From Bacteroidales bacterium (GTDB lineage Bacteria; Bacteroidota; Bacteroidia; Bacteroidales; UBA932): 64,000 nucleotides of DNA. Each line of letters begins with the position of its first letter. The first letter of the stretch is position 1. A program made the position numbers and the translations under genes. The notes below the pieces were generated by a model. It was not told the DNA's origin, searched no databases, and saw only the letters and a list, made by a program, of their open reading frames with translations. This document shows, piece after piece, positions 25,775 through 47,640 of this stretch. The DNA lies in the NCBI GenBank assembly GCA_015060245.1, contig SUYU01000013.1, positions 6,538-70,537 of the forward strand, in the 5' to 3' direction.

Positions 25775-25827
25775 TGGAGCAGAAGAGCAACAGATTATAT
25801 AACGCAAACAGATAAAACCATTATATT

Positions 25828-27522: not shown

Positions 27523-27554
27523 AATCCCTGTTAGAGTGTGTTCTAACAGGGATT
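27523..27554. terminator. hairpin between the convergent gltX and the accessory block (possibly a bidirectional terminator)
   Basis: 13-bp stem AATCCCTGTTAGA / TCTAACAGGGATT with a 6-nt loop, followed by a T-rich run on the plus strand. Confidence 0.6.
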
Positions 27555-27625
27555 TGCTGTTTGATAAAGAATCTTCCAAGTAATCCTCATGATTGTTTTG
27601 AAAAGATCTTATGGGTTACCCGCTA

Positions 27626-27735
27626 CTATTTTAGCGTTGCAACCACCAGCACCGGATTGCTCTCCTCTGTGAGAGTGGCGGCTATCTCTTTCATTTTTGG
27701 AGAATTGCTCTTTGTGGCATATTCAATGAATTTGT
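27626..27735 (-). repeat. shared 3'-end repeat, copy A
   Basis: Near-identical at nucleotide level to the copies at 31640, 32904 and 34614 (ctattttagcgttgcaaccac.agcaccggattgctctc...ggagaattgctctttgtggcatattcaat). Confidence 0.9.
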
Positions 27736-28834
27736 CAGCAGCAATAATCTGATACATCTTGTTGCCTATACAATGTTGTGGATCAAATGGAGCACCGCCA
27801 TCAATATCATTAACGAAACCATGAGCCTTGAATTCATAATTATAAGGCATCGTATATAACTCATTACTGACCTTATCCAGAATCATAACTCCTTTTTTAA
27901 ATTCAGAATCAGATCCTCTGCTATATATGCCCGACAATGAATATTTATTGCCCAATAAAGAAATACTAATAAAACTTGCGCACTCTTTTACACTATTGAA
28001 GTTTACATCAAACCTCAACCTGTCGCCACCATCCTTCGTAATGACATCCCTTTTATACTTTCCAAAATCAAATATATAATTGGACAATTCCTTAAAATCA
28101 GTACTGAAGAGAGTAAGCCTGTCACCCATACCATTAAACACCCTCAAAGCACCATTAAATGAATACACCAAATCCGGGCAGACGATATCCATATCTCCTA
28201 AAAATGCCCCCTTCATACAATAAGAACCCTCCTCTGACAATTCGTATGAAAAAACAACTTTTGACATAGTATCAACAACAAATACCTTCTGCAAATACTT
28301 AAGTTTATCCACCATTATTGCCGCTGTAAATGCATAGTTGCCTTTCTCCAAATATGCTCCATACCTTATTGTTGAGCCACCTTGAATATTAGGTCTAATT
28401 ACCCTAACATTGCTGTTTTCTACATAACATGAAAGAATCTTGAAATCATCAAAAAGACAAAAATCACTATTCAAGTCATGCTCTACCGAAAGTCCCTGAA
28501 TCGAAAGATACTCCTTTGGCCCACGACCTTTCCTATCAACAGTTCGTACATATTTACCTGAAGTGTCAAACACCAGTACGCTCTCCTCTTGAGTCTGTAC
28601 ATAATAATACTTTCCGTCAAAATCAAATCTTGGCACATATCCCATGACAGATTCCGGAGTAGTTTCCAAAGGTATATATTCTATTTCCTTGGCATACCTG
28701 CCCAATTTTACCTCTTTACAATTCTTTACCGCATTCTCAACAGAAAAATGCTTATTATCCACTCTGACACTACCCTCGGCAGTACCAGAACAGCAAATAA
28801 GAACAACAGACAACAATAAAAATACATTTCTCAT
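27626..28834 (-). CDS. paralog A: lipoprotein of the '6-bladed beta-propeller / BF3164-like' family
   Basis: Lipobox (MRNVFLLLSVVLICCSG; Met at 28834 preferred), family motifs EIEYIPLET, KGRGPKEY and NDIDGG, and the shared tail ...KFIEYATKSNSPKMKEIAATLTEESNPVLVVATLK. The family call comes from memory of annotated Bacteroidales proteins, not from a search. Confidence 0.7.
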   Translation of the reverse strand: MRNVFLLLSVVLICCSGTAEGSVRVDNKHFSVENAVKNCKEVKLGRYAKEIEYIPLETTPESVMGYVPRFDFDGKYYYVQTQEESVLVFDTSGKYVRTVDRKGRGPKEYLSIQGLSVEHDLNSDFCLFDDFKILSCYVENSNVRVIRPNIQGGSTIRYGAYLEKGNYAFTAAIMVDKLKYLQKVFVVDTMSKVVFSYELSEEGSYCMKGAFLGDMDIVCPDLVYSFNGALRVFNGMGDRLTLFSTDFKELSNYIFDFGKYKRDVITKDGGDRLRFDVNFNSVKECASFISISLLGNKYSLSGIYSRGSDSEFKKGVMILDKVSNELYTMPYNYEFKAHGFVNDIDGGAPFDPQHCIGNKMYQIIAADKFIEYATKSNSPKMKEIAATLTEESNPVLVVATLK

Positions 28835-28873
28835 AACAATACACTTTTCTACAGCAGGGAATATTTCTACCAC

Positions 28874-28945
28874 CTATTTTAGCGTTGCAACCACAAGCAC
28901 CGGATTGCTCTCCTCTGTGAGGGTGGAGGCGATCTCTTTAATCTG
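28874..28945 (-). repeat. shared 3'-end repeat, copy B (shorter)
   Basis: The first ~70 nt from the stop are near-identical to the other copies, then the sequence diverges. Confidence 0.85.
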
Positions 28946-30067
28946 CGGATTATCATACATTGATGCATATTCTACAAAATCAATTGCATCAACGAGCCAT
29001 ACACACTTTCCATCACTTGTAAACCACTGGGGGAAAAATGGCAATCCTCCATCAAGATCATTCTCAAATGCAACCATCCCTATTTGTGGAATATTTTTCA
29101 TTGCATATAATTGGGACTCTTTATTATCATACAATAAAAAACCTACAGACTTCACATTACCCCCACCACAAATAGTAGAGAAATAACTGTCTGGAAAAAT
29201 AAATGATAAAAGGAAAAAATTATCACAACCTCTTGCCCCTGCAAAAAACAACTTCTCGCGTGGATTTGAATTATGCCTCAAGTCCCCATATTTTCCAAAA
29301 TCTATATTATATGCAACAGACTTCTCTTCTCCGTTCAGTCTATAAATGGTTTCAAAATCCCCCTTTACCAAATGAACTGTCCCATCCATACCTTTATAGA
29401 GTTTTGAATTTGCAAGAGTGGTTCCCTCTTTACCCATCATCAACATTGGAGTTCTGTACAATTCTCCCACATTAATTACAGCCTCAACAGTTCCATTACC
29501 ATTGAGCAATACACAATGCTCAACCAAGTCTCTTGTAAGTGAATCCTGTTTTGATGTCAGAATAACATACCCATTCTGTGCCGGCATAAAATCATCTATG
29601 TACTTAACTCCAATATCCTTGACTTCCTGTAAGGATATATTGTCAATCAAATCCAATTCTTGGTCATACACCAGAATCTTTTCTCGGGTAAGTACTGAAG
29701 TATTTCCTAACTTTTCATCAAAAACTAAACTTTGAATAAAGAAATATTCGTTTAAGCCTCTTCCTCGAGTACCAATTTTTCCTTTAAACTCTCCTTTGTG
29801 ATTGAAACACCGGATTTCATCGCCATGTGATGCAAAATTATATTGGCCATTACCGCCTGAAAAAAGAAGCACATTACCCAAAAGAGACTCCTCATTCGTT
29901 TGCAGTGGTATATACTCTATAGAAGAGAAGTACTTGCTCATCTTCAAAGTTTGAGCCTCCCCAACCGCTTTCGCAAAATCAAGTTTTTTGACTTCCTGTT
30001 TATCATTTGCACAGCCAAATGCAAACAAGAACAATACAAATACTACATATTTTCTAAACATATACAT
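28874..30067 (-). CDS. paralog B: lipoprotein of the same propeller-like family
   Basis: Lipobox LFAFGC, SIEYIPLQT, RGRGLNEY, NDLDGG, and the same final 22 aa (KEIASTLTEESNPVLVVATLK). Confidence 0.7.
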   Translation of the reverse strand: MYMFRKYVVFVLFLFAFGCANDKQEVKKLDFAKAVGEAQTLKMSKYFSSIEYIPLQTNEESLLGNVLLFSGGNGQYNFASHGDEIRCFNHKGEFKGKIGTRGRGLNEYFFIQSLVFDEKLGNTSVLTREKILVYDQELDLIDNISLQEVKDIGVKYIDDFMPAQNGYVILTSKQDSLTRDLVEHCVLLNGNGTVEAVINVGELYRTPMLMMGKEGTTLANSKLYKGMDGTVHLVKGDFETIYRLNGEEKSVAYNIDFGKYGDLRHNSNPREKLFFAGARGCDNFFLLSFIFPDSYFSTICGGGNVKSVGFLLYDNKESQLYAMKNIPQIGMVAFENDLDGGLPFFPQWFTSDGKCVWLVDAIDFVEYASMYDNPQIKEIASTLTEESNPVLVVATLK

Positions 30068-30176
30068 ATCTTAATTAGTTGGTAAATCATCTTCGCCTAC
30101 CCATTGACATCTTTTACATGTATAATAAATTTGGGCTTAGCAATGAAAAGTGAAAACGGGCCAGGCACAGAAATGC

Positions 30177-31280
30177 CTAAACCTCCATATAACCTAATCT
30201 GAAATCACCCTCATTATAATCACCATAAAGAAGATAGAGTTTATTACCGGTATCATCATACTTTATGTCAAATATTTCTCTATTCAATTTATATGTTTTC
30301 AATAATCTTCCTGCCCAATCATACTCTAAGATATAGTACAAATCATCTTCTAAATCTAACTTCCTGCCATAATATACGGCATATATCCTTTCTTGTGATA
30401 CAGCAATAGATACAAAACCCGTTACATCATAACTATGCTGATGATATGTGCATCCTCCTCCAGAATGCAACTTAATATATAATTTGGGAACGTGATACCT
30501 ATTCTCATTCAATAATACTATTGAATCATTTTCAAGTGAGTAAATACCCATATACGCACCATAATTTGTCCCAGTTACCATTCTTTTTCCATCCGGTCTT
30601 ACAGCAATTCTGGCAAAATCAAACATTTTTCTGCTGATCAATTCTTTGTGTTTTATTTCCACAATATTCGGATATAATGCAAATGTATCTAACAATTTAC
30701 CTTTATTATCATACAATTCGTACAGGTTCCTGTTCTTTCTCTTATTACCTGGAGTTGCTATAATTCTATCGTTTATAGGAATAATATCCGCAAAAGCCAA
30801 TTGCCCCATAAATTTACCTGGAACAGGAGACAATCTTGTAAATTCAAACGGATATGAATGTGACATTATCTCTTTTACTTTATATGTATACACCGTACTT
30901 AAAGGTAAGTGTACAACATAATAAGTACTGTCATTACCTGTTGTAAAATGTACATATGTCATACCCATAATAAATTCTCCAGGCCCTCTGCCAATAGCCG
31001 CAAAACTCTTCAAATACTCGCCTGTCCTTTTTGAAAAAAGATGTTGGGTATATTCATAATCGGAGCCCGTAGCAACTACAAAACTATCTTTAACAGCGAG
31101 TTTATGATAATGAGCCGTTTCTTTCTCTATCCTGGTTATTTCAATTACATCAGCATCTTTTGCCTTACTCAAATCAGGAGGAATAAAGGCTAGAGGATTA
31201 TCATTGGCTCTATTACATGATGAAAAGGTTACGATTGTGCAAACAATATAAAAAATAATAGATGCTAATCTTAATTCCAT
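30177..31280 (-). CDS. divergent lipoprotein, distantly related to the propeller-like paralogs and lacking the shared tail
   Basis: Lipobox TFSSC and a GRGPGEF motif in the equivalent position. The C-terminus differs (…EGDFRLGYMEV) and there is no 3' repeat. Confidence 0.55.
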   Translation of the reverse strand: MELRLASIIFYIVCTIVTFSSCNRANDNPLAFIPPDLSKAKDADVIEITRIEKETAHYHKLAVKDSFVVATGSDYEYTQHLFSKRTGEYLKSFAAIGRGPGEFIMGMTYVHFTTGNDSTYYVVHLPLSTVYTYKVKEIMSHSYPFEFTRLSPVPGKFMGQLAFADIIPINDRIIATPGNKRKNRNLYELYDNKGKLLDTFALYPNIVEIKHKELISRKMFDFARIAVRPDGKRMVTGTNYGAYMGIYSLENDSIVLLNENRYHVPKLYIKLHSGGGCTYHQHSYDVTGFVSIAVSQERIYAVYYGRKLDLEDDLYYILEYDWAGRLLKTYKLNREIFDIKYDDTGNKLYLLYGDYNEGDFRLGYMEV

Positions 31281-31297
31281 TTTACATATGATATAAG

Positions 31298-31555
31298 TTA
31301 CTCTTCTTTGGTAGAAAAATCATATCCACATGTTGGGCAGATACCTCTTGTCAATTTACCATCGCCACCTTTGGGATTTGAACCATCCTCAGGAGCAAAT
31401 AATTCTCCACATCCTGGGCACACAAATATACACATATTAGTGGATGTTCCTTTACATGTTCCATAAATACCAGTAGACTCTGATTGAACTACTTGCGCAA
31501 TAGAATAAACTGCAGCCAATAAAATTGTCACTACCGACAAACCTATAATCAACAA
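31298..31555 (-). CDS. small membrane/exported protein P1 with two CPxC knuckles (zinc-ribbon-like)
   Basis: Hydrophobic N-terminus LLIIGLSVVTILLAAVYSIA, then CPGCG-23 aa-CPTCG and an acidic end. The start is uncertain: the TTG at 31555 is used in the track, and the in-frame upstream codons read ...KIKKR with no ATG. Confidence 0.55.
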   Translation of the reverse strand: MLIIGLSVVTILLAAVYSIAQVVQSESTGIYGTCKGTSTNMCIFVCPGCGELFAPEDGSNPKGGDGKLTRGICPTCGYDFSTKEE

Positions 31556-31627
31556 TCTCTTTTTTATCTTTTGATTGTTTTTAAGTAATTCTACAAGCAG
31601 TGACTATGTTGCCCCACAAAGGCTGCA

Positions 31628-31751
31628 ACCTCCCCAATCCTATTTTAGCGTTGCAACCACAAGCACCGGATTGCTCTCATCTGTGAGGGTGGAGGCAATC
31701 TCTTTCATTTGCGGAGAATTGCTCTTTGTGGCATATTCAATAAACTTGTCG
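31628..31751 (-). repeat. shared 3'-end repeat, copy C (includes 12 nt past the stop)
   Basis: Near-identical to copies D and E, including cctccccaatc downstream of the stop. Confidence 0.9.
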
Positions 31752-32836
31752 GCATTTATCATCTGATACATCTTATCTCCAGCATAGTATACAGGATCAA
31801 ATGGCATACCCCCATCAATATCATTCACAAAGCCATGAGCGTTGTACTTATAATTATATGGCATTGCTTTAAGTTTATTAGTGGCTTTGTCCAGAATCAA
31901 ACTGCCTGCAGATAAAAATTTATCATTATTACCATTGGCATATATCTCCTGTAAAGAGTGCTTGTTGCCCATAAGGATAAGTTTTATAAAAGACTCCGTT
32001 TCAAATACATTATTAATACGCAGTCCCTTTGAATTATTTATAACTACATCATTTGGATTATAGTTACCATAATCAAAAGTATAACATAACAACCTCTCAT
32101 AATTATCATCATATACTACAAGAGTATCACCTGTAGACTTTAAATATCTTAAACAACCTTTAAATGAATATAATGAGCCACTAGTTGTGGAAGTTCCTTT
32201 TATCCCCCAATTGTACACAGACTCTGTTCCTAAAATTCCCAAATTCTTTATATTCAATAAAGAATCAATAATAAATAAACCTAATGTATCTTTTCCATCA
32301 ATATTGGGAGTAGATGTACGCACTGCCATTTCCCCATCTTTAATAAAGAGACAAGAAGATACATTTGATATACCCAAAGTATCAAGATCCAAAGCCTCCA
32401 CACACTCACCATCAAGGGTATAACCAAGTATTTTAGAACCGCTTATTACGCTTATTTGATTATCCTCTTTTATGGTAAAACCATCTATCAGCATATACTC
32501 CTTTGGTCCCCTGCCATGATTATTTATAAGATTTGTGAATTTTCCATTTGAATCAAATACTGTTATGTTTGTTGAACTGTATACATAATAATTACTGTTA
32601 CCCGCTCTAAACTTGGGCGCAAGACCAATAATTGATTCCTCCTTTGTTTCCAAAGGAATATATGCTATATCTGAAGCATACTCACTCAAACATATCTCCT
32701 GGCAATTCTGCATAGCCTCCTCTATGGAATATGTTCTATTATCATTATGATTAGAGACATTGCCTGTACACCCTGTTAAAAGAAACAGCCCCATAGCAAT
32801 GAAAGCGGCATACAAATTATTGAATTCTTTTACCAT
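31640..32836 (-). CDS. paralog C: lipoprotein of the propeller-like family
   Basis: Lipobox LLTGC, DIAYIPLET, HGRGPKEY, NDIDGG and the shared tail. Confidence 0.7.
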   Translation of the reverse strand: MVKEFNNLYAAFIAMGLFLLTGCTGNVSNHNDNRTYSIEEAMQNCQEICLSEYASDIAYIPLETKEESIIGLAPKFRAGNSNYYVYSSTNITVFDSNGKFTNLINNHGRGPKEYMLIDGFTIKEDNQISVISGSKILGYTLDGECVEALDLDTLGISNVSSCLFIKDGEMAVRTSTPNIDGKDTLGLFIIDSLLNIKNLGILGTESVYNWGIKGTSTTSGSLYSFKGCLRYLKSTGDTLVVYDDNYERLLCYTFDYGNYNPNDVVINNSKGLRINNVFETESFIKLILMGNKHSLQEIYANGNNDKFLSAGSLILDKATNKLKAMPYNYKYNAHGFVNDIDGGMPFDPVYYAGDKMYQMINADKFIEYATKSNSPQMKEIASTLTDESNPVLVVATLK

Positions 32837-32840
32837 ATTA

Positions 32841-33010
32841 ACATAATTTGCATTTGCACAAAATTACAGCAAACATTTATTAAAGCCAAGAACCTCCCCA
32901 ATCTTATTTTAGCGTTGCAACCACAAGCACCGGATTGCTCTCCTCTGTGAGGGTGGCGGCTATCTCTTTCATTTTTGGAGAATTGCTCTTTGTGGCATAT
33001 TCAATAAATT
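32841..33010 (-). repeat. shared 3'-end plus downstream-intergenic repeat, copy D
   Basis: About 170 nt align with 34551-34720 at a constant offset of 1710 nt, with only a few substitutions. Confidence 0.9.
32859..32866 (-). promoter_or_regulatory. candidate -7 box TAATTTTG inside the repeated intergenic cassette, upstream of paralog C
   Basis: The minus strand reads TAATTTTG, 22 nt before the ATG at 32836. A TCTTG lies 20 nt further upstream as a possible -33 element. Confidence 0.45.
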
Positions 33011-34136
33011 TCATAGCATTTACAGCCTGATACATTTTATTACCCACAACGCGTAAAGGCACAAACGGCGCACCACCATCAATGTCATTTTTGAAACCAT
33101 GAGCATTGAATTCATAATTATACGGCAAAGCGCACATCTTATTGCTTGCTTTATCCAACATCAGGAAGCAAGTTACACGATCTTTGTGCCAACCATCTGT
33201 GTTCCATCCCTTACTGAAGACTTTCGGCATGGCCTTCAAGCGCCCGTCAAGTTTAAACAGCATAAAACTGTCAGACTCAATATTCCACCTATGCTCAATT
33301 CCTGTAATGAATTCATCTTTGACTCCATGTGAATTGCTATAATCAAAGGTAATTTGTGATAATTCTTTCAAATTATTATCATAAAATACTATTGTATCGG
33401 CGGGTAATCCTTTAGACAGCCTTAAATTCCCTTTATATGAATGAATGAATAAACCATAATTCAGACTAAATTTATTTTCCAGATTCTCGTCCTTCAATAT
33501 ATTGCATAATGTATCAACTACAAGCAGCCTCGATGATGAAAAGGACCATTTCTTATCTGGCTCACGTTTACCCGTGCATAAAACAGCATACCTGCCTTCA
33601 TTAAGGTAGACGCCTCTATAAATGCCTGAAAAACTTGACTTGTTCAAATCTAGATTTTCACTGAGTACATCTTGCATATCCAATTCTCTTACACACTTTC
33701 CATCATCTTCATATACAAGTATTTTATAATTGTCAAACAGACAAGCATACTGCTCAACAAGATCACTTTCAAGAGAGAAGTCAGATGCGCTTAAATACTC
33801 TCCTGGGCCCCGTCCGCTTTTGTTTATCTGCGAAATATATTTACCATTCTGATCAAAGATCAATACGGATTGCGGCCTATTGGCATTGTAGATATACAAA
33901 TACTTCCCATCCGTGTTTATGTCAAACACAAACATCAATGATGATTTTTCATTTGTTTCCAACGGTATATACTCTATATCTGAAAAATACTTGCTCAAAG
34001 GCACATCTGCACAATTCTCAAGTGCTTCAGAAATATTATAACGAGTATCTTCAACGCTTGCCACATTTGATCTACAGGAGACTATGGCAAACACACACAG
34101 TACCAATATATATTTACTAAATCTACTCATTGTCAT
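32904..34136 (-). CDS. paralog D: lipoprotein of the propeller-like family
   Basis: Lipobox FAIVSC, DIEYIPLET, SGRGPGEY, NDIDGG and the shared tail. The ATG at 34136 lies 2 nt after the P2 stop (the track start at 34142 is a TTG overlapping that stop). Confidence 0.7.
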   Translation of the reverse strand: MTMSRFSKYILVLCVFAIVSCRSNVASVEDTRYNISEALENCADVPLSKYFSDIEYIPLETNEKSSLMFVFDINTDGKYLYIYNANRPQSVLIFDQNGKYISQINKSGRGPGEYLSASDFSLESDLVEQYACLFDNYKILVYEDDGKCVRELDMQDVLSENLDLNKSSFSGIYRGVYLNEGRYAVLCTGKREPDKKWSFSSSRLLVVDTLCNILKDENLENKFSLNYGLFIHSYKGNLRLSKGLPADTIVFYDNNLKELSQITFDYSNSHGVKDEFITGIEHRWNIESDSFMLFKLDGRLKAMPKVFSKGWNTDGWHKDRVTCFLMLDKASNKMCALPYNYEFNAHGFKNDIDGGAPFVPLRVVGNKMYQAVNAMKFIEYATKSNSPKMKEIAATLTEESNPVLVVATLK

Positions 34137-34138
34137 TA

Positions 34139-34465
34139 TCAATAAATAATTACTATTCTATTTTCATCTAAATCAGATATATGGTAAATTTTATCTATTT
34201 CTGTAACAGAACCACAGACTTGGCAAGATATGTATGAAACATAAAAATAAGTATGATCTGTACTCATGTAATAACCACAATATTCCACTAAATTTGCCTG
34301 GTGACACACTTCACATCTTAATAATGCTGTATATGTTTGACCATTATCATTTGCGGATGTTTCAGAATTTAATCCTCCTACTGAAGTAGCCGCATTCAAA
34401 GTATTGAATGTAAAAAAAGCAATTAATGTAAGAAATAACATCTTACCAAAGGGTAATTTCTTCAT
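34139..34465 (-). CDS. small exported protein P2 with two CxxC knuckles
   Basis: Sec-type signal peptide MKKLPFGKMLFLTLIAFFTFNTLNA, then CEVCH-26 aa-CQVCG. Its stop abuts the start of paralog D. Confidence 0.65.
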   Translation of the reverse strand: MKKLPFGKMLFLTLIAFFTFNTLNAATSVGGLNSETSANDNGQTYTALLRCEVCHQANLVEYCGYYMSTDHTYFYVSYISCQVCGSVTEIDKIYHISDLDENRIVIIY

Positions 34466-34550
34466 AGCATAAATATTTTATAAAGTTAATAAATCCAAGT
34501 TTAAACATTCCCACTTGACAGCGTATCCCAAGCATTGGCTACGTTGCCAC

Positions 34551-34720
34551 ACAATATTTGCATTAGCACAAAATTACAGCAAACATTTATTAAAGCCAAG
34601 AACCTCCCCAATCCTATTTTAGCGTTGCAACCACAAGCACCGGATTGCTCTCCTCTGTGAGGGTGGCGGCTATCTCTTTCATTCTTGGAGAATTGCTCTT
34701 TGTGGCATATTCAATAAACT
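34551..34720 (-). repeat. shared 3'-end plus downstream-intergenic repeat, copy E
   Basis: See copy D. Confidence 0.9.
34569..34576 (-). promoter_or_regulatory. candidate -7 box TAATTTTG inside the repeated intergenic cassette, upstream of P2
   Basis: Same cassette as at 32859-32866, about 104 nt upstream of the P2 ATG. Confidence 0.4.
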
Positions 34721-35789
34721 TGTCGGCCTGAACCAATTGATATAAATATTTATCAGTGCAAAAATCGGGAAGAAAAGGAGCACCATAATCAATATCATTT
34801 TTAAAGCCATGAGTCTCAAATTCATAATTATATGGCATAGCACATAACTCTTTTTTTTGTTTGTCAAGAATCATAACTCCTGCTGCCAACCTTGAATCTG
34901 TACCTTTGGAATATAATTTGGCCAACGAATATTTATTGCCCAACAAACCAAATTTTATAAATCTGTCGGACTCTAAAATTTCTCTTGAATAATTACGGAG
35001 GCTATTGGGATTTTCTGCATCCAAATTATTGAAATCATATTTTCCATAATCAAATATATACCTGTCGGCCATACAATTGCCATCATATACAAACAGCGTA
35101 TCTCCATTTGCATTAAATATATATATGGAATCTTTATAGGCATATACCTTATCATTTTCTACAATTGTCATCCCATTCGCCAAAAACGAAGGCATAATAC
35201 CCAGTTCTATAGCCGATATAACATTTGATGCAGAATCTACAATTTGCAAAGATTGGTGTTCGGATTTACCTTCGCTTACCAATGCAAACATGCCTTTCCC
35301 CATATTTGCACTGGATCTTATTGACGAATAACCCGCTTGTTTTAAGTTTACGCACCTTAGACTCTTGCCTTCTATTGAATAAGAGAGTATTTTTAAACCA
35401 TCATCCACAGAGACCTCCTTATTATCTACAGATAGATGATTTACTCTCAAATACTCTTCCGGTCCCCTTCCCTTTTTATTTATTTTGCTTACGAATTTTC
35501 CTTCTTTATCAAAAATCAATATGCTGGAAGTGGATACATATATGTAGTTCTCATCGGTACAAAATAATGGATTCCTACCAATAAGAGCCTCATTTGTAGT
35601 CTGTAACGGGATATATCCCAGTTCCAATGCATACTGACTTAATGGAATATCGCGGCACATTTTAAGTGCTTCCGGAATAGAATACCTTAAGTTATCATTA
35701 TCATTGGCAGCAGAATTACATCCTGACAATAAAAGTACTATACCGCAACATAATGAAACAAAAAGCATTTTGACAAATAATCTGCTCAT
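34614..35789 (-). CDS. paralog E: lipoprotein of the propeller-like family
   Basis: Lipobox LLSGC, ELGYIPLQT, KGRGPEEY, NDIDYG and the shared tail. Confidence 0.7.
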   Translation of the reverse strand: MSRLFVKMLFVSLCCGIVLLLSGCNSAANDNDNLRYSIPEALKMCRDIPLSQYALELGYIPLQTTNEALIGRNPLFCTDENYIYVSTSSILIFDKEGKFVSKINKKGRGPEEYLRVNHLSVDNKEVSVDDGLKILSYSIEGKSLRCVNLKQAGYSSIRSSANMGKGMFALVSEGKSEHQSLQIVDSASNVISAIELGIMPSFLANGMTIVENDKVYAYKDSIYIFNANGDTLFVYDGNCMADRYIFDYGKYDFNNLDAENPNSLRNYSREILESDRFIKFGLLGNKYSLAKLYSKGTDSRLAAGVMILDKQKKELCAMPYNYEFETHGFKNDIDYGAPFLPDFCTDKYLYQLVQADKFIEYATKSNSPRMKEIAATLTEESNPVLVVATLK

Positions 35790-35819
35790 AATATTTGCCT
35801 ACCTCCCCGTTACATAAAT

Positions 35820-36101
35820 TTACTTATCTATATCTTCTTCCTCCGATATTATGGTCTCCTCTCCACAAGTATTGCATTTGATTTTTTCTACGATGAAATG
35901 CTCGGGATTGTTCAAATCTATATATCCATATAATCGTATGTCGTCACTACCGCATATAGGACACACAATTATAGATTGATTTTCGGCCTGAATATTTTCT
36001 TCATTCAAAATCAATAATACACCATTGCTATCTCCAGCATTTATATTTGATGAAATTACAGATACCAATAGCAATAAAGTTAGAAATTTAATTTTTTTCA
36101 T
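35820..36101 (-). CDS. small exported protein P3 with two CxxC knuckles
   Basis: Signal peptide MKKIKFLTLLLLVSVISSNINA, then CPICG-25 aa-CNTCG and an acidic tail EEEDIDK. Confidence 0.65.
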   Translation of the reverse strand: MKKIKFLTLLLLVSVISSNINAGDSNGVLLILNEENIQAENQSIIVCPICGSDDIRLYGYIDLNNPEHFIVEKIKCNTCGEETIISEEEDIDK

Positions 36102-36206
36102 AAAAACATCTTATAAGGTTATTAAATATAGTTTACTGTACAAACGAACCTTGTGCATAAATTTCAGATGAATCAATAATTCTATAATATGCGCCATTGG
36201 CGATTG

Positions 36207-36214
36207 CAAATATA
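36207..36214 (-). promoter_or_regulatory. candidate -7 box (TATATTTG) upstream of P3
   Basis: The minus strand matches TAnnTTTG, 32 nt downstream of the nearest GTTTGACA box. Confidence 0.35.
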
Positions 36215-36245
36215 GAGAATATATGGTTTTACCTCATAAAAAAAA

Positions 36246-36336
36246 GTTTGACACAGTTGTTTTTATTCAACTGATTTACAGATATATAGAATTTCAATTC
36301 TTGAAAAAGTTTGACAGGCGGGAAAAATGTTTGACA
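36246..36336 (-). promoter_or_regulatory. three direct GTTTGACA boxes (copy 1), a candidate operator array
   Basis: Boxes at 36246-36253, 36309-36316 and 36329-36336 (minus strand: YTGTCAAACWTTT). Spacings are 63 and 20 bp, close to whole helical turns. Confidence 0.5.
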
Positions 36337-36403
36337 AGTCTCTAATTTAACCTGTTTTGTGCCGATAGCCTAACCTGAAACCATCTTCATTATTTTAATT
36401 TCA

Positions 36404-38044
36404 TCAGTTGGACTTTAACAGATTGGTTATATACGTATTCAAATTGATGTTATTGATATCTGTTCCCAACTTCTTACGTATACTGCTGCTTATATGATAG
36501 TGACGGCTTTGGTTGGTATAGAATCCTATATCCTTGCCATTCATTCCTATTGCAAAGAGACAACAATACTCCATCTCCAATTCTGTAAGATTCCTTTCTT
36601 TCAGATGTGATATAAATCTGGGATGCGTAGATTTGTAGACAAGCAACAGGGAGTGCATAAACTCTTCCCTATCTTCTATAATAGTGTCTATCTTACGCCA
36701 CAACTCCTTTTCATCCCTGATTCTTGATATGAAGAGTTGGTTCAACAAATCTATTCTCTCCTTTATTATATCTGTTATTGATTTGTCAAGCGACATATTT
36801 GAGTCAAGCAACTCTTTCAAACTCGAAACCTCCTCTTCCAAAAGCGAATAAGAATGTGCCAATCTCTCCTTTTCTGCCTCTACCAATCTCTTTTCAAGCA
36901 GGCTTGACTTCAATTTTTGCCTGATGAGAACTATAATAAGCACAAGCATAAGAATAAACGATACTGATGCCAACAGTATCAGCCTCCTCAAGTTCTGCTG
37001 TTGCGTATTTTTTGTCTCGAGAGCATGCCGTTCCTCCAGGAATCGCGTATCTTCCCTTATTTGCAACAGACTCAATGAGTCACTATGAAGGAAATATTTC
37101 TTATAGCACATTAATGATTTTTCGTAATCATTAAAATTTTCATATATCTCTGATAGAATTGAATACATACGTGTTGGCCTTTCGTTTGTATAAATCTTAT
37201 ACCTTTCAACAGCATCATAAGCACTTTTATAATCCTTAATACTACAATATGCTGCGGCAACACTCAGCCATTCCACATTGCGGTGAGGTACTTTATAAGT
37301 ATATTCCAATATTGTATTTGCAACACTATCCCTTTCATAGTCTGACCTATAGGTAACCAATATTTCATAATATTGATTAAGCCAGTTGAGATTTTGGGCA
37401 GTATCAACGATACTTTCTATATACTTGAGTTCTTTAAAAGCATTTACTGAATCTGATTGTGCAAAATAACCATAAAAGAGCCTTCTGTGAGAATTGAACC
37501 AGGAACTCTCTTTACCTCCAAGTTTAAATAGATTTGCGGCTTCCTTCATACACTTGTTATGGGACTCAAAATCAAATACAGACCTGTAAATTATTCCTTG
37601 GGCAAACAGCATCCTTGCCCTGGTAAGATTGTCATTGGAGAGTTTACCCTCATCAAGACCTTTTACAAAAGCGGCCATTGCTGACTCTTCATCATGGCGG
37701 TTTCTGTAAATGGCTCCTTTATAATAGTACATGCGGAGTTTGTCTGTTGCACTGCCTTTGTGTGTATAGTAATCTATGGCGGGTTGCAACACAGAAAAGT
37801 CTGTGGTATCTATGTAATTCTTGTCCATAGCCATGGAGAGCAACAGGGAGTGCTTTGCCTCCACTTTTGCACTTCGCAGTTGCGATTGGTCAATTGACCG
37901 GAGTGTGGCCAGAGCACTGTCGGGATAATGCTCAATATATGAATCAACTTCATTGAGAAGATTTAATGCCGCACTGTTGTCACGGCATGAAACAAAAAGT
38001 GTGATTGCTGCTATAAGAAACAGATATGGAACTCTTACACTCAT
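36404..38044 (-). CDS. one-component membrane regulator: lipobox signal, TPR-like periplasmic domain, one TM helix, coiled coil and a C-terminal LuxR/GerE-like HTH (copy 1)
   Basis: N-terminus MSVRVPYLFLIAAITLFVSC, TPR-like helical repeats, TM helix LILLASVSFILMLVLIIVLI, and C-terminus LTELEMEYCCLFAIGMNGKDIGFYTNQSRHYHISSSIRKKLG. Confidence 0.6.
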   Translation of the reverse strand: MSVRVPYLFLIAAITLFVSCRDNSAALNLLNEVDSYIEHYPDSALATLRSIDQSQLRSAKVEAKHSLLLSMAMDKNYIDTTDFSVLQPAIDYYTHKGSATDKLRMYYYKGAIYRNRHDEESAMAAFVKGLDEGKLSNDNLTRARMLFAQGIIYRSVFDFESHNKCMKEAANLFKLGGKESSWFNSHRRLFYGYFAQSDSVNAFKELKYIESIVDTAQNLNWLNQYYEILVTYRSDYERDSVANTILEYTYKVPHRNVEWLSVAAAYCSIKDYKSAYDAVERYKIYTNERPTRMYSILSEIYENFNDYEKSLMCYKKYFLHSDSLSLLQIREDTRFLEERHALETKNTQQQNLRRLILLASVSFILMLVLIIVLIRQKLKSSLLEKRLVEAEKERLAHSYSLLEEEVSSLKELLDSNMSLDKSITDIIKERIDLLNQLFISRIRDEKELWRKIDTIIEDREEFMHSLLLVYKSTHPRFISHLKERNLTELEMEYCCLFAIGMNGKDIGFYTNQSRHYHISSSIRKKLGTDINNINLNTYITNLLKSN

Positions 38045-38172
38045 AAAACAATTTCTCTGTCATGATTGTACATATTGCCATACTGGCAATTTTAATTGGA
38101 AGTAATAACAAACTCTATCTTTATCTTCCCATTTCAACATCTTACCAGCGTTTATTATTAATACATAATTTG

Positions 38173-38180
38173 CAAAGTTA
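38173..38180 (-). promoter_or_regulatory. candidate -7 box (TAACTTTG) upstream of regulator copy 1
   Basis: The minus strand matches TAnnTTTG, 31 nt downstream of the nearest box of the second array. The geometry is the same as at 36207-36214. Confidence 0.35.
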
Positions 38181-38210
38181 AGCATACATGACATTATATC
38201 ATAAAAAAAA

Positions 38211-38301
38211 GTTTGACACAGTTGTTTTTATTCAACTGATTTACAGATATATAGAATTTAATTTTTTGAAAAAGTTTGACAGGCGGGAAAAATGTTTGAC
38301 A
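38211..38301 (-). promoter_or_regulatory. three direct GTTTGACA boxes (copy 2)
   Basis: Boxes at 38211-38218, 38274-38281 and 38294-38301, offset exactly 1965 nt from copy 1. Confidence 0.5.
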
Positions 38302-38368
38302 AGTCTCTAATTTAACCTGTTTTGTGCCGATAGCCTAACCTGAAACCATCTTCATTATTTTAATTTCA

Positions 38369-40006
38369 TCAGTTGGACTTTAACAGATTGGTTATATACG
38401 TATTCAAATTGATGTTATTGATATCTGTTCCCAACTTCTTACGTATACTGCTGCTTATATGATAGTGACGGCTTTGGTTGGTATAGAATCCTATATCCTT
38501 GCCATTCATTCCTATTGCAAAGAGACAACAGTACTCCATCTCCAATTCTGTAAGGTTCCTTTCTTTCAGATGTGATATAAATTTGGGATGCGTAGATTTG
38601 TAGACAAGCAACAGGGAGTGCATAAAATCTTCCCTGTCTTCTATAATGGTGTCTATCTTACGCCACAACTCCTTTTCATCCCTGATTCTTGATATAAAGA
38701 GTTGGTTCAACAAATCTATTCTCTCCTTTATTATATCTGTTATTGATTTGTCAAGCGAGATATTTGAGTCAAGCATATCTTTCAAACTCGATACCTCTTC
38801 TTCCAATAGTGAATAAGAATGTGCCAATCTCTCCTTTTCAGCCTCTACCAATCTCTTTTCAAGCAGGCTTGACTTCAATTTTTGCCTGATGACAACTACG
38901 ACAAGCAGTAACATGAGGATGAGAGATATGGATGCTGACAGTGTACGTTTCCTGGAGTTATCTTTTTCTGCATTTTCCAGTTTAAGGCCATATCGCTCCT
39001 CTATAAACTGCGTATCACTCTTCAGTTTTGCGACATTTGCTGAATCACTTCTTGAAAAATACTGCTTGTAATGGAACAATGCATCAGAAATATTACCTGA
39101 ATTCTCATGCAATTCCGACAATATAGCATGGTATCTGATATTCTGATCTGCATTATATTTGTCATATAGTCCTATAGCATCAAAACCACTATTATAATCA
39201 CCTGTGAGCAAATATGCCGCAGCAACTGAAAGCCACGGAATCTGTGAATGTTCAACATTTCTCAAATAATCAGATAATGTATTCTTAAGACTATCCTTTG
39301 CATATTGCATCTCATAACTGAGAATAGCCTCAAAACATCTATTCTTATCAGCCTTTATATCATTTAGAGCAATTTTTTTTAGATATTCTATTTGCTCTTT
39401 GGCCTTTATAGAATCATTCTTTGCAGAATATCCATAATATACATTAATCAAGGAATTTATCTCAGAGCGTCTGTTTCCTCCTTTACGAAAACAACATGAA
39501 GCCTCCTGCATACACTTTATATATGCGTCAAAGTTCCTTAAATTGTAGTATATGTTGCCTTGAGCAAACAGCATCCTTGCTCTGGTCAAATTGTCATTGG
39601 AGAGTTTCCCCTCATCAAGACCTTTTACCAAAGCGGCCATTGCAGACTCTTCATCATTGCGGTTTCTGTAAATGACACTTTTATAATAGTACATGCGGAG
39701 TTTGTCTGTTGCACTGCCTTTGTGTGTATAGTAATCTATGGCGGGTTGCAACACAGAAAAGTCTGTGGTGTCTATGTAATTCTTGTCCATAGCCATGGAG
39801 AGCAACAGGGAGTGCTTTGCCTCCACTTTTGCACTTCGCAGTTGCGATTGGTCAATTGACCGGAGTGTGGCCAGAGCACTGTCGGGATAATGCTCAATAT
39901 ATGAATCAACTTCATTGAGAAGATTTAATGCAGCACTATTGTCACGGCATGAAACAAAAAGTGTGATTGCTGCTATAAGAAACAGATATGGAACTCGGGC
40001 ACTCAT
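38369..40006 (-). CDS. one-component membrane regulator, same architecture (copy 2)
   Basis: The N-terminal ~148 aa and C-terminal ~175 aa are nearly identical to copy 1. The central ~225 aa (distal TPR region and TM helix) are strongly diverged. Confidence 0.6.
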   Translation of the reverse strand: MSARVPYLFLIAAITLFVSCRDNSAALNLLNEVDSYIEHYPDSALATLRSIDQSQLRSAKVEAKHSLLLSMAMDKNYIDTTDFSVLQPAIDYYTHKGSATDKLRMYYYKSVIYRNRNDEESAMAALVKGLDEGKLSNDNLTRARMLFAQGNIYYNLRNFDAYIKCMQEASCCFRKGGNRRSEINSLINVYYGYSAKNDSIKAKEQIEYLKKIALNDIKADKNRCFEAILSYEMQYAKDSLKNTLSDYLRNVEHSQIPWLSVAAAYLLTGDYNSGFDAIGLYDKYNADQNIRYHAILSELHENSGNISDALFHYKQYFSRSDSANVAKLKSDTQFIEERYGLKLENAEKDNSRKRTLSASISLILMLLLVVVVIRQKLKSSLLEKRLVEAEKERLAHSYSLLEEEVSSLKDMLDSNISLDKSITDIIKERIDLLNQLFISRIRDEKELWRKIDTIIEDREDFMHSLLLVYKSTHPKFISHLKERNLTELEMEYCCLFAIGMNGKDIGFYTNQSRHYHISSSIRKKLGTDINNINLNTYITNLLKSN

Positions 40007-40019
40007 TTTGGGGCAGTTG

Positions 40020-40778
40020 TTATTGTGCTATAAACCTGTATGCTATCTCTCCAATCTGTTTTTCCGGCGCACTTTGTGATGCAGAGAACCTGCTTCTTTT
40101 GGCTGCAGCAATGGCTGCCTTTATAAGGCACTCGTCGGATGAAGATGATGACCCTTCAATGATTGAGGCGGCAACAACATATCCTCTTCTGTTTACTGTA
40201 ATCTGCACATAAACATCGCCTCCGCCATAACATTTGTATACCGGCACCGGCAATGACATTCCTTTTCTTCCATCAAGTGAATATGAGAGCACAGAGGGGC
40301 CTTTATATGTTTCAGTTTTGCCCTTTTTCTCCTGGTTGCCTGTTGAAACATCATCATCACTACCCTGCTCCATCATGGCCTCCCTGCGGGAAGCGTCAAG
40401 TTTCTTCTGGAGTTCACGGGCCTCATCATAAACTTGTGAAGGATTCTTGAAGCGGTCATCCCTGAGGTTGCGGCCACTGCTTCTGTCTACCGCCACATTC
40501 CTGTAGGCAGAGGCCGAAACATTTCCATTCAAAAGATCTTCAACGGCCTTCTGCGCCTGAATCTTTATCTCCTCCTCCTTTATCTTCTGCTCCATCTCCT
40601 CCAAACCGGTAAAGTCAAGTACAAAGGCGGTCTCCTCCGCCACTACATTGCTTATTGTAGTTGCCAGCAGAACAATTATTATCACAAGATGGAACACCAC
40701 AGTTGAGTAGAAGCCTATTCTCCTCTCTTTGGTATTCAGAATCTCCCTGTTTATGTACTCCTTTACCCTTTTGAACAT
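40020..40778 (-). CDS. TonB C-terminal-domain-like membrane protein
   Basis: N-terminal TM helix, a charged/coiled linker, and a C-terminal GDVYVQITVNRRGYVVAASII...AAIAAAKRSRF segment resembling TonB_C. Met at 40778 preferred. Confidence 0.5.
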   Translation of the reverse strand: MFKRVKEYINREILNTKERRIGFYSTVVFHLVIIIVLLATTISNVVAEETAFVLDFTGLEEMEQKIKEEEIKIQAQKAVEDLLNGNVSASAYRNVAVDRSSGRNLRDDRFKNPSQVYDEARELQKKLDASRREAMMEQGSDDDVSTGNQEKKGKTETYKGPSVLSYSLDGRKGMSLPVPVYKCYGGGDVYVQITVNRRGYVVAASIIEGSSSSSDECLIKAAIAAAKRSRFSASQSAPEKQIGEIAYRFIAQ

Positions 40779-40820
40779 ATAAATGCAAATTTGTCGGGAA
40801 TATCCGCTTCCCGACAAATA

Positions 40821-46563: not shown

Positions 46564-47037
46564 CTAATTTTCTGGACCAGCCTGACGTGCTGAATACATG
46601 ATCTTAAGCGCTGAACAACGTCTAAGTTCCTGTTTTACGTCAGTGATGATACCCATACGAACATTCTCGTCAGCCTTGATAACAACTGTCATGAAAGTTC
46701 TGTCAGCCTCGCTCAAATTCTCGCGCTCTGCTGCAACGAAGTCTCTAATATCATCTGTTGTCTTGAATGAATCATTCAACTGAATACGAGCATCTGTACC
46801 ATACTCAGCCTGTTTTGAAATTACAGGAGTACCGATGTTAATGTAAGATGCAAGGTCTTTTCTCTCCAATTTAGCAATCTCTGATGCCTGTGGAAGTTTA
46901 ACTGTAACAAGCGCAGTCTCTTCTCTCAACTGTGTTGTTGCCATAAAGAAGAACAGCAACATAAATACGATATCAGGAAGAGATGTGGTTGCCAATGGTG
47001 GAACCTCTTTTTTACCGCCTCTATTAAATTTAGCCAT
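46564..47037 (-). CDS. exbD: biopolymer transport protein ExbD/TolR
   Basis: N-terminal TM helix (LPDIVFMLLFFFM) and an ExbD periplasmic domain. Confidence 0.85.
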   Translation of the reverse strand: MAKFNRGGKKEVPPLATTSLPDIVFMLLFFFMATTQLREETALVTVKLPQASEIAKLERKDLASYINIGTPVISKQAEYGTDARIQLNDSFKTTDDIRDFVAAERENLSEADRTFMTVVIKADENVRMGIITDVKQELRRCSALKIMYSARQAGPEN

Positions 47038-47055
47038 AATTTTATATCCTCCTAA

Positions 47056-47640
47056 TTATCTACGTTTACTAATATCTTTAGGCTCGGCCTCTGAAATATT
47101 CTGCGGAATGGCCTCACGGACAATCTTCTGTTTGTCCTCATCCAAAGCATTATATTTCTTGCCGTAATTCTTCATTGCAAAATCATCACGAATCTCATTG
47201 AAAGCCTTTACAAGTTCATTCTGAACCTGCAAATATGAATTGTAACTTGTACCGCGGTCATTCTGCAATGATACAACACCTTTAGAAACTGCATACTGGC
47301 CAAATCCCTCAATATCCTTCATCTCCTTCTCTGGAAGGTTTTCAAGATTCAAAGGATTGGTCACGAACTCAACAATCTTGTCCTTAATCTCAGAAATCTC
47401 CATAATCTGACCACCTGCAATGATTCTGTCTGCAGCATTGATCTTAACCTGGATGATATTTCTGCGGTTGACTTTTGCATCCTCTTGTTGCTGATTCTCA
47501 TCAGGCATAGGAGGCAAACGACGCTGAAGACCCTTATCGGAGTTCATTGTAGTTGTTGTCAACCAGAAGATCAATAGCAAGAAAGCGATATCGGCCGATG
47601 ATGAAGCGTTAATGCCTTCTGCATTTCTCTTAATAGCCAT
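47056..47640 (-). CDS. exbD: biopolymer transport protein ExbD/TolR (long form)
   Basis: DIAFLLLIFWL TM helix and an ExbD-like domain. Confidence 0.8.
   Translation of the reverse strand: MAIKRNAEGINASSSADIAFLLLIFWLTTTTMNSDKGLQRRLPPMPDENQQQEDAKVNRRNIIQVKINAADRIIAGGQIMEISEIKDKIVEFVTNPLNLENLPEKEMKDIEGFGQYAVSKGVVSLQNDRGTSYNSYLQVQNELVKAFNEIRDDFAMKNYGKKYNALDEDKQKIVREAIPQNISEAEPKDISKRR

Follow-up and report, generated by a model that had tools for sequence, protein, structure and literature searches.

Strain-variable pairs of predicted exported Cys-knuckle mini-proteins and propeller lipoproteins beside gltX in a Bacteroidales genome

Why would a bacterium keep small, apparently exported cysteine proteins in repeated units with much larger lipoproteins, at a site where close relatives hold other sets of such units? 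The question is raised by an island of 11 open reading frames (ORFs) in a stretch of 64,000 nucleotides from a Bacteroidales bacterium (GenBank assembly GCA_015060245.1, contig SUYU01000013.1, positions 6,538 to 70,537; the whole stretch is called the window below). The island occupies 27626-40006, entirely on the minus strand, between gltX (25828-27441, plus strand) and a TonB_C-like gene (40020-40817, minus strand). It consists of two mosaic regulators with tetratricopeptide repeats (TPR) and a transmembrane helix, three Cys-knuckle mini-proteins (P1-P3), and five DUF5128 and one TolB_like propeller lipoproteins. The answer that we favor, and hold tentatively, is that a mini-protein and its propeller are a cognate binding pair used in competition between strains. 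It is supported by the strict pairing of the two genes, which extends to stand-alone pairs at unrelated sites; by cassette content that differs at the same site despite 98% nucleotide identity of gltX, in DNA of low G+C content; and by a putative operator that is conserved after each regulator while its repeat sequence is lineage-specific.

The ORF list confirmed what an earlier note, made from the sequence of the window, had described: 11 minus-strand ORFs between gltX and the TonB-like gene, none of them housekeeping, in a block that is indeed A/T-richer than its surroundings (G+C content 0.34-0.37 inside the island versus 0.44-0.48 in the flanks). The two regulators have 545 and 546 amino acids (aa) and the six propeller proteins 367-415; the remaining three ORFs are small. 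Public annotation of the window proteins that were looked up reads "6-bladed beta-propeller" or "hypothetical protein". In the order of transcription, the features are as follows.

38369-40006, minus: Reg1; lipobox, periplasmic TPR region, one transmembrane helix (~353-378), C-terminal LuxR-like segment; BT3442-like
38173-38301, minus: putative operator-promoter, copy 1, in front of Reg2
36404-38044, minus: Reg2, paralogue of Reg1 with another membrane-proximal periplasmic segment
36207-36336, minus: putative operator-promoter, copy 2, in front of P3 and the module array
35820-36101, minus: P3, predicted exported acidic mini-protein, 93 aa, CPIC/CNTC, P2/P3 family
34614-35789, minus: E, DUF5128 propeller lipoprotein, 30 nucleotides (nt) 3' of P3, lipobox LSGC
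34139-34465, minus: P2, predicted exported acidic mini-protein, 108 aa, CEVC/CQVC
32904-34142, minus: D, DUF5128 propeller lipoprotein, partner of P2
31640-32836, minus: C, DUF5128 propeller lipoprotein without its own mini-protein
31298-31567 (ORF 31298-31555), minus: P1, Cys6 mini-protein, 85 aa from the TTG at 31555
30177-31280, minus: TolB_like (PF15869) propeller lipoprotein, partner of P1, 17 nt 3' of it
28874-30067, minus: B, DUF5128 propeller lipoprotein without a mini-protein in the window
27626-28873, minus: A, DUF5128 propeller lipoprotein, last gene of the array; missing from the L003-L006 configuration (see below)
27523-27554, minus: terminator-like hairpin, 13-bp stem followed by a T-rich tail; ends the array
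32904-32993, minus: homogenized 3' cassette end, example of D (its last ~90 nt)
27626-27715 (A), 31640-31729 (C), 34614-34703 (E) and 28874-28963 (B, less close), minus: equivalent 3' ends

The mini-proteins are genuine genes: their leaders are conserved, their cysteines invariant and their mature domains fast-evolving. All three begin with a hydrophobic leader and contain a pair of CxxC motifs spaced by 27-30 residues (29 in P3 and 30 in P2; 23-24 in the mini-proteins of the related locus L006), so that the double-CxxC description holds throughout, with the amendment that P1 has six cysteines. Homologues of P2 were found down to 67% identity and those of P1 down to 53%; in both families the leader is nearly invariant and the cysteines are invariant, while the mature part is variable. 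P2 and P3 are related to each other (30% identity, E 4e-8), and hhalign shows no relation between the P1 family and the P2/P3 family. A profile of the P2/P3 family matched 8 proteins among 1.84 billion representative proteins, and a word-based homologue search with P3 returned nothing beyond P3's own cluster; public assemblies include P3 among their gene calls. In their mature form the mini-proteins are acidic, with isoelectric points of 4.0-5.0. The stop codon of P2 shares 4 nt with the start of D, if that start is placed at the TTG of the longest ORF.

P1 differs from its homologues at the start codon, which looks to have mutated from ATG to ATA across the whole lineage of the window. The in-frame codons upstream of its TTG (31556-31567, minus strand) read ATA-AAA-AAG-AGA (I-K-K-R) where the homologues have MKKR, and the ATA at 31565-31567 occupies the position of their ATG. 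Gene callers place the start of P1 at a GTG further in, leaving 77 aa, or skip the gene. Its TolB_like partner is intact despite this loss.

The mini-proteins are neither unconserved nor independent of the lipoproteins, as the earlier note had allowed for: the homologues are conserved and each pairs with a propeller, and the repeated mini-protein and lipoprotein modules that it proposed are real, as judged from their strict adjacency in relatives. These relatives are designated here by L numbers. A full-length paralogue alignment on genome contigs led to L008 alone, since the pattern fell in the C-terminal tail; metagenome contigs were scanned with an N-terminal alignment. Wherever the DNA downstream of a P2/P3-family mini-protein is readable, a propeller gene lies at most 50 bp 3' of it. 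This gene was confirmed as DUF5128 in eight configurations (two in the window, then L007, L008, L009, L089/L090, L096-L098 and L100), and in L099 and L091 it is cut by the contig end and too short to type. Every P1-family mini-protein is in turn followed by a TolB_like gene (the window, L006 twice, L008, L102-104 and L105-107). At L096-L098 and L100 the pairs stand alone amid housekeeping genes with no regulator nearby, and the dedicated sensor-regulator proposed for the system is therefore a feature of the island, but not an obligatory one.

The relatives also carry genes that are missing from the window, namely those of a DUF3244-like protein and of a CSSC lipoprotein. The DUF3244-like gene is the most constant neighbor of the regulator. 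The CSSC lipoprotein, of 163 aa and named for an invariant motif, precedes the P1 family in four contexts outside the window; its length is 162-163 aa in L006 and L105, and 115-119 aa in L008 (616-963) and L102 (8628-8987). The shortened copies and the absence from the window suggest an ongoing loss of this gene in part of the lineages. The orthologue of B in L006 is preceded by another two mini-proteins with double CxxC, of 71 and 81 aa, matched by neither the P1 nor the P2/P3 profile, and in L105 a divergent TPR protein and a DUF3244-like gene adjoin the CSSC lipoprotein, P1 and TolB_like genes. The locus L051, from the human gut, contains an operon (2197-7420) that runs from a BT3442-like regulator through a bona fide DUF3244 gene, a family 2 glycosyltransferase (GT2), a PMT-like glycosyltransferase, a small exported protein, a DUF5128 gene, a CEPC protein and an S26 signal peptidase to a second small protein with its DUF5128 gene. 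L089 has the order regulator, DUF3244-like protein, lipoprotein with a Cys-rich tail, 871-aa protein, mini-protein with DUF5128, and Wzy_C protein. Such helper genes hint at periplasmic processing or glycosylation of the cargo. The lipoprotein with the Cys-rich tail (4300-5322) has 340 aa, the last ~130 of which are dense in CxxC and CxC motifs, and belongs to no Pfam family; a Wzy_C plus TPR protein stands in L089 where L051 has the glycosyltransferases and the peptidase.

Do DUF5128 genes keep small partners in general? We surveyed 72 non-redundant DUF5128 genes taken from a range of metagenomes. A small leader-bearing ORF lay directly upstream of 14, and in 7 cases it had at least 4 cysteines, whereas the corresponding figures for 107 other genes in the same loci were 7 and 1 (p 0.008). 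The small neighbors in the survey were NVEALA-like, by a sub-threshold match or by motif, or otherwise Cys-rich, and not of the double-CxxC type. The remembered link between such lipoproteins and NVEALA-type peptides was thus borne out. The P1-P3 proteins themselves have neither an NVEALA (PF14055) hidden Markov model (HMM) match at E ≤ 0.1 nor the motif, and membership in that family was ruled out by the missing Pfam match. The two kinds of neighborhood, the other being known from database annotation, agree in placing a small exported Cys-rich gene directly upstream of a DUF5128 lipoprotein; P1-P3 differ in their short cleavable-type leaders, paired CxxC knuckles and tiny families.

Since most of the surveyed DUF5128 genes have no small partner, the propellers might perform a housekeeping-like binding function in the envelope, such as nutrient capture, with phage or host immunity as the force behind their variation and with mini-proteins that are neighbors only by chance. 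Bacteroides propeller lipoproteins can bind nutrients, and BtuG was among the structural matches of the D model described below. We nevertheless consider this explanation quite improbable: mini-protein and propeller are strictly adjacent in independent contexts, often at a distance that suits translational coupling, the invariant cysteines reveal a clear constraint on the mini-proteins, and the island contains no TonB-dependent transporter.

The propeller nature of the lipoproteins is well supported. Proteins A to E match Pfam DUF5128 (PF17170) with 67.9, 59.8, 87.1, 88.7 and 99.4 bits, respectively, against a gathering cut-off of 22.9, and the protein at 30177-31280 matches TolB_like (PF15869) with 59.9 bits against 29.2, over model positions 23-295 of 296. 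All six have a lipobox, and the EYIPLET, GRGPxEY and NDIDGG motifs named in the earlier note are present; A-E carry all motifs found family-wide in DUF5128, namely the lipobox Cys, YIPLET, GxGPxEY and a C-terminal NPVLV..LK. Of the earlier assignment to a "6-bladed beta-propeller / BF3164-family", the propeller part therefore stands, with five DUF5128 members and one TolB_like member, but the BF3164 part found no support: no family so named was among the NCBIfam matches (E ≤ 0.1 for B-E and TolB_like, E ≤ 0.05 for A), although whether the library holds such a model was not checked. NCBIfam offered no family for the six propellers at E ≤ 0.05-0.1, the stray NHL-type matches being far under the cut-off. 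A narrow pattern search of viral contigs found no DUF5128 relative.

An AlphaFold2 (AF2) model of D, built from 6 sequences and with some blades of low confidence (predicted local distance difference test, pLDDT, 73.9; predicted template modeling score, pTM, 0.75), has a propeller fold like that of solved family members. Its best Foldseek match was BF0058 (PDB 4RAA; E 7e-16, template modeling scores 0.60/0.68), followed by BVU_1028 (PDB 3S9J, DUF4221; E 3e-8) and then by generic NHL and WD40 propellers; 4RAA was also the best match of E in a PDB sequence search (E 5e-6). The structure search proposed in the earlier note thus matched D to solved propellers. Both solved proteins are structural-genomics propellers with 13-15% identity to D, so the match informs on the fold only. 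We aligned 90 DUF5128 members from 80 metagenome loci and the window, with a median identity to D of 21%, and found the following elements conserved: the lipobox Cys, YIPLET, G100, G110-x-G-P-x-E115-Y, K331, D353 and N403-P-V...K412. Because its motif is conserved across this alignment, the C-terminal tail is a hallmark of the whole DUF5128 family.

How, then, does the island vary? Contigs encoding a GltX of identical amino acid sequence carry the same island, while relatives whose gltX differs by 2% in nucleotides hold other cassette sets at the same gltX site. The L003-L006 set comprises one regulator, the DUF3244-like gene, the CSSC lipoprotein, two P1/TolB_like pairs, and two mini-proteins with B. 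The L008 set comprises the DUF3244-like gene, the CSSC lipoprotein, a P1/TolB_like pair and B, then a P2/D-like pair, and the L102-104 set one P1/TolB_like pair. Traces of the exchange are visible at the cassette ends. In A, C, D and E, the final ~90 nt share 92-98% nucleotide identity, synonymous sites included, and in D and E the next 30 nt downstream are 100% identical; the L006 junction, at which A was deleted or inserted, falls inside this conserved 3' tail, and what is left of the 5' end of C can still be seen in L008. Protein constraint alone is partly rejected as the cause of the C-terminal identity among paralogues, in that synonymous sites and downstream DNA are near-identical too, and gene conversion alone is rejected in that the motif is family-wide. 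At the other end of the unit, the P2 leader has 98.7% DNA identity versus 82-92% for the mature part, and the divergence of a mini-protein tracks that of its propeller. What varies is therefore the mature mini-protein together with the body of the propeller, a unit enclosed by conserved ends that are prone to recombination: the leader on the 5' side and the propeller tail on the 3' side.

Exchange reaches beyond the island. Between the window (24353-27441) and L008 (5792-8886, a metagenome-assembled genome from goat caecum), gltX has a synonymous divergence (dS) of 0.08 with 99.4% amino acid identity, and ftsZ a dS of 1.03 with 88%. This difference in dS places a recombination breakpoint between ftsZ and gltX, with gltX travelling with the island. 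The array is, on these comparisons, not the product of simple local duplication alone, as had been supposed, its cassettes having been exchanged by recombination; the accompanying statement that the 11 genes include no integrase or transposase was upheld by family HMM scans. The island was also considered as a mobile element, and this was rejected: none of its 11 genes has a match to an integrase or transposase family, and the only tyrosine recombinase of the window lies ~22 kb off (4726-5715).

Amino acid changes are in excess in the mature mini-protein. In the mature part of P2, nonsynonymous and synonymous differences number 20 and 1 against the L009 allele and 37 and 9 against that of L008, compared with 24.5 and 11.5, and 187 and 118, respectively, in the D gene (Fisher p 0.02 and 0.013 against P2); for gltX the figures are 3 and 27. 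Of the three roles put forward in the earlier note, recognition, modification or antagonism, cassette turnover and the amino acid excess in P2 fit recognition or antagonism better than metabolism, the role itself being only inferred.

In the explanation that we favor, the mini-protein would be a fast-evolving effector released in competition between strains, its propeller lipoprotein would be the cognate neutralizer, to which it binds in the cell envelope, and the propellers that have no mini-protein (A, B and C) would give extra protection against the mini-proteins of other strains. We prefer this reading because propellers persist without mini-proteins, as A, C and B do here and as the partner of P1 does after the loss of the ATG, in the manner of orphan immunity genes; because the mature mini-protein shows an excess of amino acid change; and because, at loci with related regulators, the cargo is of toxin type and responds to co-culture by induction. 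Polymorphic loci for bacteriocins or toxins and their immunity proteins, such as those of class II microcins or orphan immunity arrays, provide the general model. The island resembles them in combining a conserved leader with a variable core and in having two linked, co-varying genes, and also in its strain-variable sets at a fixed site, its orphan partners and its recombination at conserved ends. It differs in that the leader is of the Sec type rather than the double-glycine type, there is no dedicated exporter, and the putative immunity protein is a 400-residue propeller lipoprotein. A cluster for a ribosomally synthesized and post-translationally modified peptide or a double-glycine bacteriocin was ruled out, since a radical-SAM enzyme, a C39 transporter and a GG leader are all missing. 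The 11 island genes encode no transporter, C39 peptidase or lysis protein, and the PADLOC defense models, scanned with 10 of the 11 proteins (not A), gave one stray match (E 0.0024).

Several observations weigh against cognate pairs serving in competition. A Sec-type leader, as predicted here, reaches the periplasm only, and the island appears to lack an outer-membrane exporter. The mature acidic mini-proteins show no similarity to known bacteriocins, a propeller of 400 residues would be unusually large for an immunity protein, and the CSSC lipoprotein, signal peptidase and glycosyltransferases of the relatives look like maturation factors. Only ~20% of the surveyed DUF5128 genes have any small exported neighbor. 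The nonsynonymous excess comes from three allele pairs, and imported recombinant blocks may explain it. Finally, four polar residues are near-invariant among the 90 aligned DUF5128 members (E115 in 99%, N403 in 96%, D353 in 84% and K331 in 82%), which suggests that the family shares a biochemical activity and is not just a scaffold for binding.

This last point, at a median identity to D of 21%, leads to the strongest rival, a two-subunit periplasmic enzyme. The propeller would be the large subunit with the active site, and the mini-protein a metal-binding (Zn or Fe, Cys4) subunit with a structural or electron-transfer role; the CSSC lipoprotein, signal peptidase and glycosyltransferases would act in maturation, and the variation would reflect different substrates. 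All three mini-proteins display two knuckles, that is, CxxC pairs ~20-30 residues apart on beta hairpins, and those of P1 may be rubredoxin-like: in hhalign, both knuckles of the P1 family align to rubredoxins (probability 56%, E 1e-4; 20% probability for the P2 family), although the rubredoxin sequences used were approximate. Zinc-ribbon HMMs gave weak, sub-threshold matches. The AF2 model of P2 has a confident all-beta mature domain (pLDDT ~85), and Foldseek found nothing significant with it, the weak top matches, with a best E of 1.2, being ribosomal and polymerase zinc ribbons. Cysteines of exported proteins may also form disulfides instead of binding metal. The enzyme would account for the invariant-CSSC lipoprotein before the P1 family in four contexts and for the S26 peptidase, CEPC protein and glycosyltransferases of the L051 operon.

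A precedent for such an assembly exists in the methylamine and quinohemoprotein amine dehydrogenases, which combine a periplasmic propeller subunit, a small Cys-rich subunit and a thioredoxin-like maturation protein. Their propellers have seven blades, however, and their cofactors are Trp-derived quinones; a cofactor of the tryptophan tryptophylquinone or cysteine tryptophylquinone type is impossible here because P1-P3 contain no Trp. These enzymes also show no hypervariability, and their linked partners, cytochromes or cupredoxins, are absent from the island. Furthermore, a mini-protein is missing for several of the propellers, the divergence of the mini-proteins is much too fast for a catalytic partner and has a nonsynonymous excess, near-identical strains differ in cassette content, and no enzyme family of Pfam or NCBIfam was matched. 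On balance the two-subunit enzyme seems to us somewhat unlikely.

What would switch the array on? Reg1 and Reg2 are mosaics of each other, with 83-100% identity over residues 1-150 and 361-545 and 30-47% over residues 151-360. Both have an N-terminal lipobox, TPR matches and one transmembrane helix at ~351-379, and the L006 orthologue of Reg1 is 94.5% identical. The mosaic structure, lipobox and transmembrane helix proposed for these proteins were thus verified, but their helix-turn-helix (HTH) received no family match: DUF6377 (PF19904) was hit by Reg2 alone and below threshold (19.6 bits versus a cut-off of 36.7, E 7e-4), and GerE was not matched at E ≤ 0.1. A PDB sequence search with the C-terminal domain returned nothing. 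A C-terminal HTH is put forward from the LuxR-like pattern LTELEMEY...IRKKLG, read by eye, together with the sub-threshold DUF6377 match. Over their full length the regulators have the BT3442-type architecture of signal or lipobox, TPR, one transmembrane helix and C-terminal domain. NCBIfam NF053779 (BT3442_fam) was matched by Reg1 with 48.7 bits (E 4.8e-13) and by Reg2 with 57.9 bits (E 8e-16), and by the regulators of L051 and L089 with 70.9 and 82.7 bits; the alignments, in four lineages, are full-length (positions 7-558 of 563, E 1e-13 to 1e-23). None of these scores (49-83 bits) reaches the equivalog cut-off of 940 bits, and the regulators are best described, at the level of sequence, as distant BT_3442 relatives and not as members of that family.

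A conserved element of ~110 bp comes after each regulator gene. It combines three TGTCAAAC repeats, of which two are spaced by 20 bp, with a TAnnTTTG box ~30 bp beyond them, which we take to be of the Bacteroides -7 type. In copy 1 the repeats lie at 38294-38301, 38274-38281 and 38211-38218 and the box at 38173-38180; in copy 2 the repeats lie at 36329-36336, 36309-36316 and 36246-36253, with TATATTTG at 36207-36214. The element is also found 3' of the regulator in L003-L006 and upstream of the DUF3244-like gene at the start of L008. A second L006 copy with its 5' leader (9273-9519) is 92.7% identical to positions 36103-36348 of the window; because this copy precedes the 71- and 81-aa CxxC mini-proteins and the orthologue of B, the regulated promoter itself appears to move with the cassettes. 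Elsewhere the same place is taken by other direct repeats, two copies of ATTTGTAACGGTTT 21 bp apart in L051 and two of CGTCAGAT in L089. We infer that the regulators bind these repeats. The membrane-spanning regulators would sense an envelope signal through their periplasmic TPR region, bind the TGTCAAAC repeats and switch on the array, Reg2 itself lying behind one copy of the element. Across the window, TGTCAAAC occurs 16 times versus 2.5 expected; six of these belong to the two operator copies, and the other ten are scattered over both strands, three of them antisense within A and D.

The regulators bring into view a further reading, in which the mini-proteins would be peptide signals, as in pherotypes, read by the variable periplasmic TPR segment, and the propellers would process, present or quench them. 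Regulators that combine TPR and HTH and read small secreted peptides are familiar from the RRNPP family. Reg1 and Reg2 differ precisely in membrane-proximal periplasmic residues, pheromone precursors typically join a conserved leader to a variable core, as the mini-proteins do, and the position of Reg2 behind an operator copy would give feedback. We give this reading little credence, as mini-protein and propeller pairs exist with no regulator nearby, members of this regulator family also stand at the head of loci that lack mini-proteins and whose cargo is of another kind altogether, and the regulator's most constant neighbor is the DUF3244-like gene and not a mini-protein.

The regulator family also connects the island to a described locus. 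In B. thetaiotaomicron, BT_3442 (TPR) and BT_3441 (Ig-like, related to PDB 3D33) head the lipoprotein-rich cluster BT_3442-BT_3433, which includes the MACPF proteins BT_3439/3437, shows internal duplications and lies directly downstream of ftsZ/ftsA/ftsQ/murC (PMC2954219, 2010). BT_3439 has been grouped structurally with the BSAP pore-forming toxins (PMC12853789), and BT_3439-3441, induced 60-96-fold, showed together with BT_2217-2221 the strongest induction of all operons when B. thetaiotaomicron was grown with Akkermansia (PMC8264420). The BT3442 model is matched over its full length by the regulators of the island and of three other lineages, both loci adjoin an ftsZ/ftsA/murC cell-division operon, the cargo of both is rich in paralogous lipoproteins with internal duplications, and a DUF3244-like gene comes straight after the regulator in the relatives of this island. 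The upstream half of the window appears to be such a cell-division and cell-wall cluster, ending in ftsA and ftsZ, as judged from collinear ORFs and from gene calls on contigs with an identical GltX. The two loci differ in that the scores of 49-83 bits stand against a cut-off of 940, in that the cargo here consists of mini-proteins and propellers rather than MACPF, lectin-like and porin proteins, and in that the window has two regulators and no DUF3244 gene; BT_3442 is itself only a putative regulator.

A second comparison is with the C10 protease lipoproteins of BT2217-2221 and their small exported partners, of which BT2221 (BtiZ) is annotated as DUF3244 (PMC3462683, PMC10434189). The Btp/Bti and Bfp/Bfi arrays, whose small partners are staphostatin-like (PMC3462683), likewise repeat modules of a small exported protein and a paralogous lipoprotein, co-transcribed there, and their operon is among those strongly induced in co-culture (PMC8264420). 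The families are unrelated, the small gene there lies either upstream or downstream, and the propellers here have no protease motifs. This layout, the appearance of the BtiZ family after the regulator in the relatives of the island, the joint induction of BT2217-2221 and BT_3439-3441, and the conserved polar propeller residues, which fit an enzyme, would together accommodate a reversal of roles: the propeller would be the active agent, at the surface or in vesicles, and the mini-protein the cognate periplasmic inhibitor or chaperone that protects the producer. The loss of an inhibitor is not expected where its effector is kept, yet A, B and C have no mini-protein and P1 has lost its ATG beside an intact partner. 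Inspection by eye, of low confidence, showed no clear acidic signal for lipoprotein export directly behind the lipidated Cys, and the inhibitory role of Bti is itself only predicted (PMC3462683). We regard this reversal as improbable.

If the mini-protein and propeller are instead effector and neutralizer, the island could belong to a new polymorphic interbacterial system of gut Bacteroidales, with exported metal-knuckle effectors or tags, propeller partners and TPR regulators that read the periplasm, a proposal that we advance as possible but doubtful. It is not wholly the undescribed system that was first announced, given that a BT_3442/DUF3244-headed cluster beside ftsZ was described in 2010 (PMC2954219); the fold family and the type of locus are already visible in databases and in that structural-genomics paper. 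What appears to be new are the families of double-CxxC mini-proteins and the strictness with which they pair with propellers, and also the operator element, the way in which the cassettes are built and the link to BT_3442 loci. A full-text literature search found no published function for DUF5128 (PF17170), NVEALA or DUF4934, and nothing usable on BF3164, DUF4221 or BF0058. There is a real chance that the island is more distinct than polymorphic cassettes of an exported protein and its partner.

The DUF5128 and related propellers form a large, multi-copy family of gut Bacteroidales, for which this locus supplies a testable model: a minimal two-gene unit, natural cognate and non-cognate alleles, orphan partners, and a defined promoter element with a candidate regulator. 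It is also tied to the clusters headed by BT_3442 and DUF3244; in one study, genes of these clusters belonged to those with the strongest induction in co-culture. If competition or recognition is the true role, the pairs would be a new class of player in gut microbiota ecology and a new use of exported Cys4 knuckles, and an interbacterial system would provide the first function for the DUF5128/NVEALA neighborhood and for BT_3442-type loci. If the two-subunit enzyme is true, it would represent a new periplasmic enzyme architecture.

Some features around the island remain to be described. No RNA families were found in the window with Rfam. The tyrosine recombinase at 4726-5715 belongs to the Phage_integrase family, is possibly of the Xer-type housekeeping kind, and is not linked to the island; neither is an ExbB/ExbD/ExbD cluster at 46564-48854, which lies in a second stretch of lower G+C content (0.39-0.42). 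The TonB_C-like gene was rejected as a component of the system: it adjoins Reg1 in close relatives but is absent at the L089 and L105 sites. Its stop codon is separated from the start of Reg1 by 13 bp (40007-40019), and a two-way hairpin lies upstream of it (40789-40819); because of this short gap and this hairpin, Reg1 and the TonB_C-like gene may be co-transcribed.

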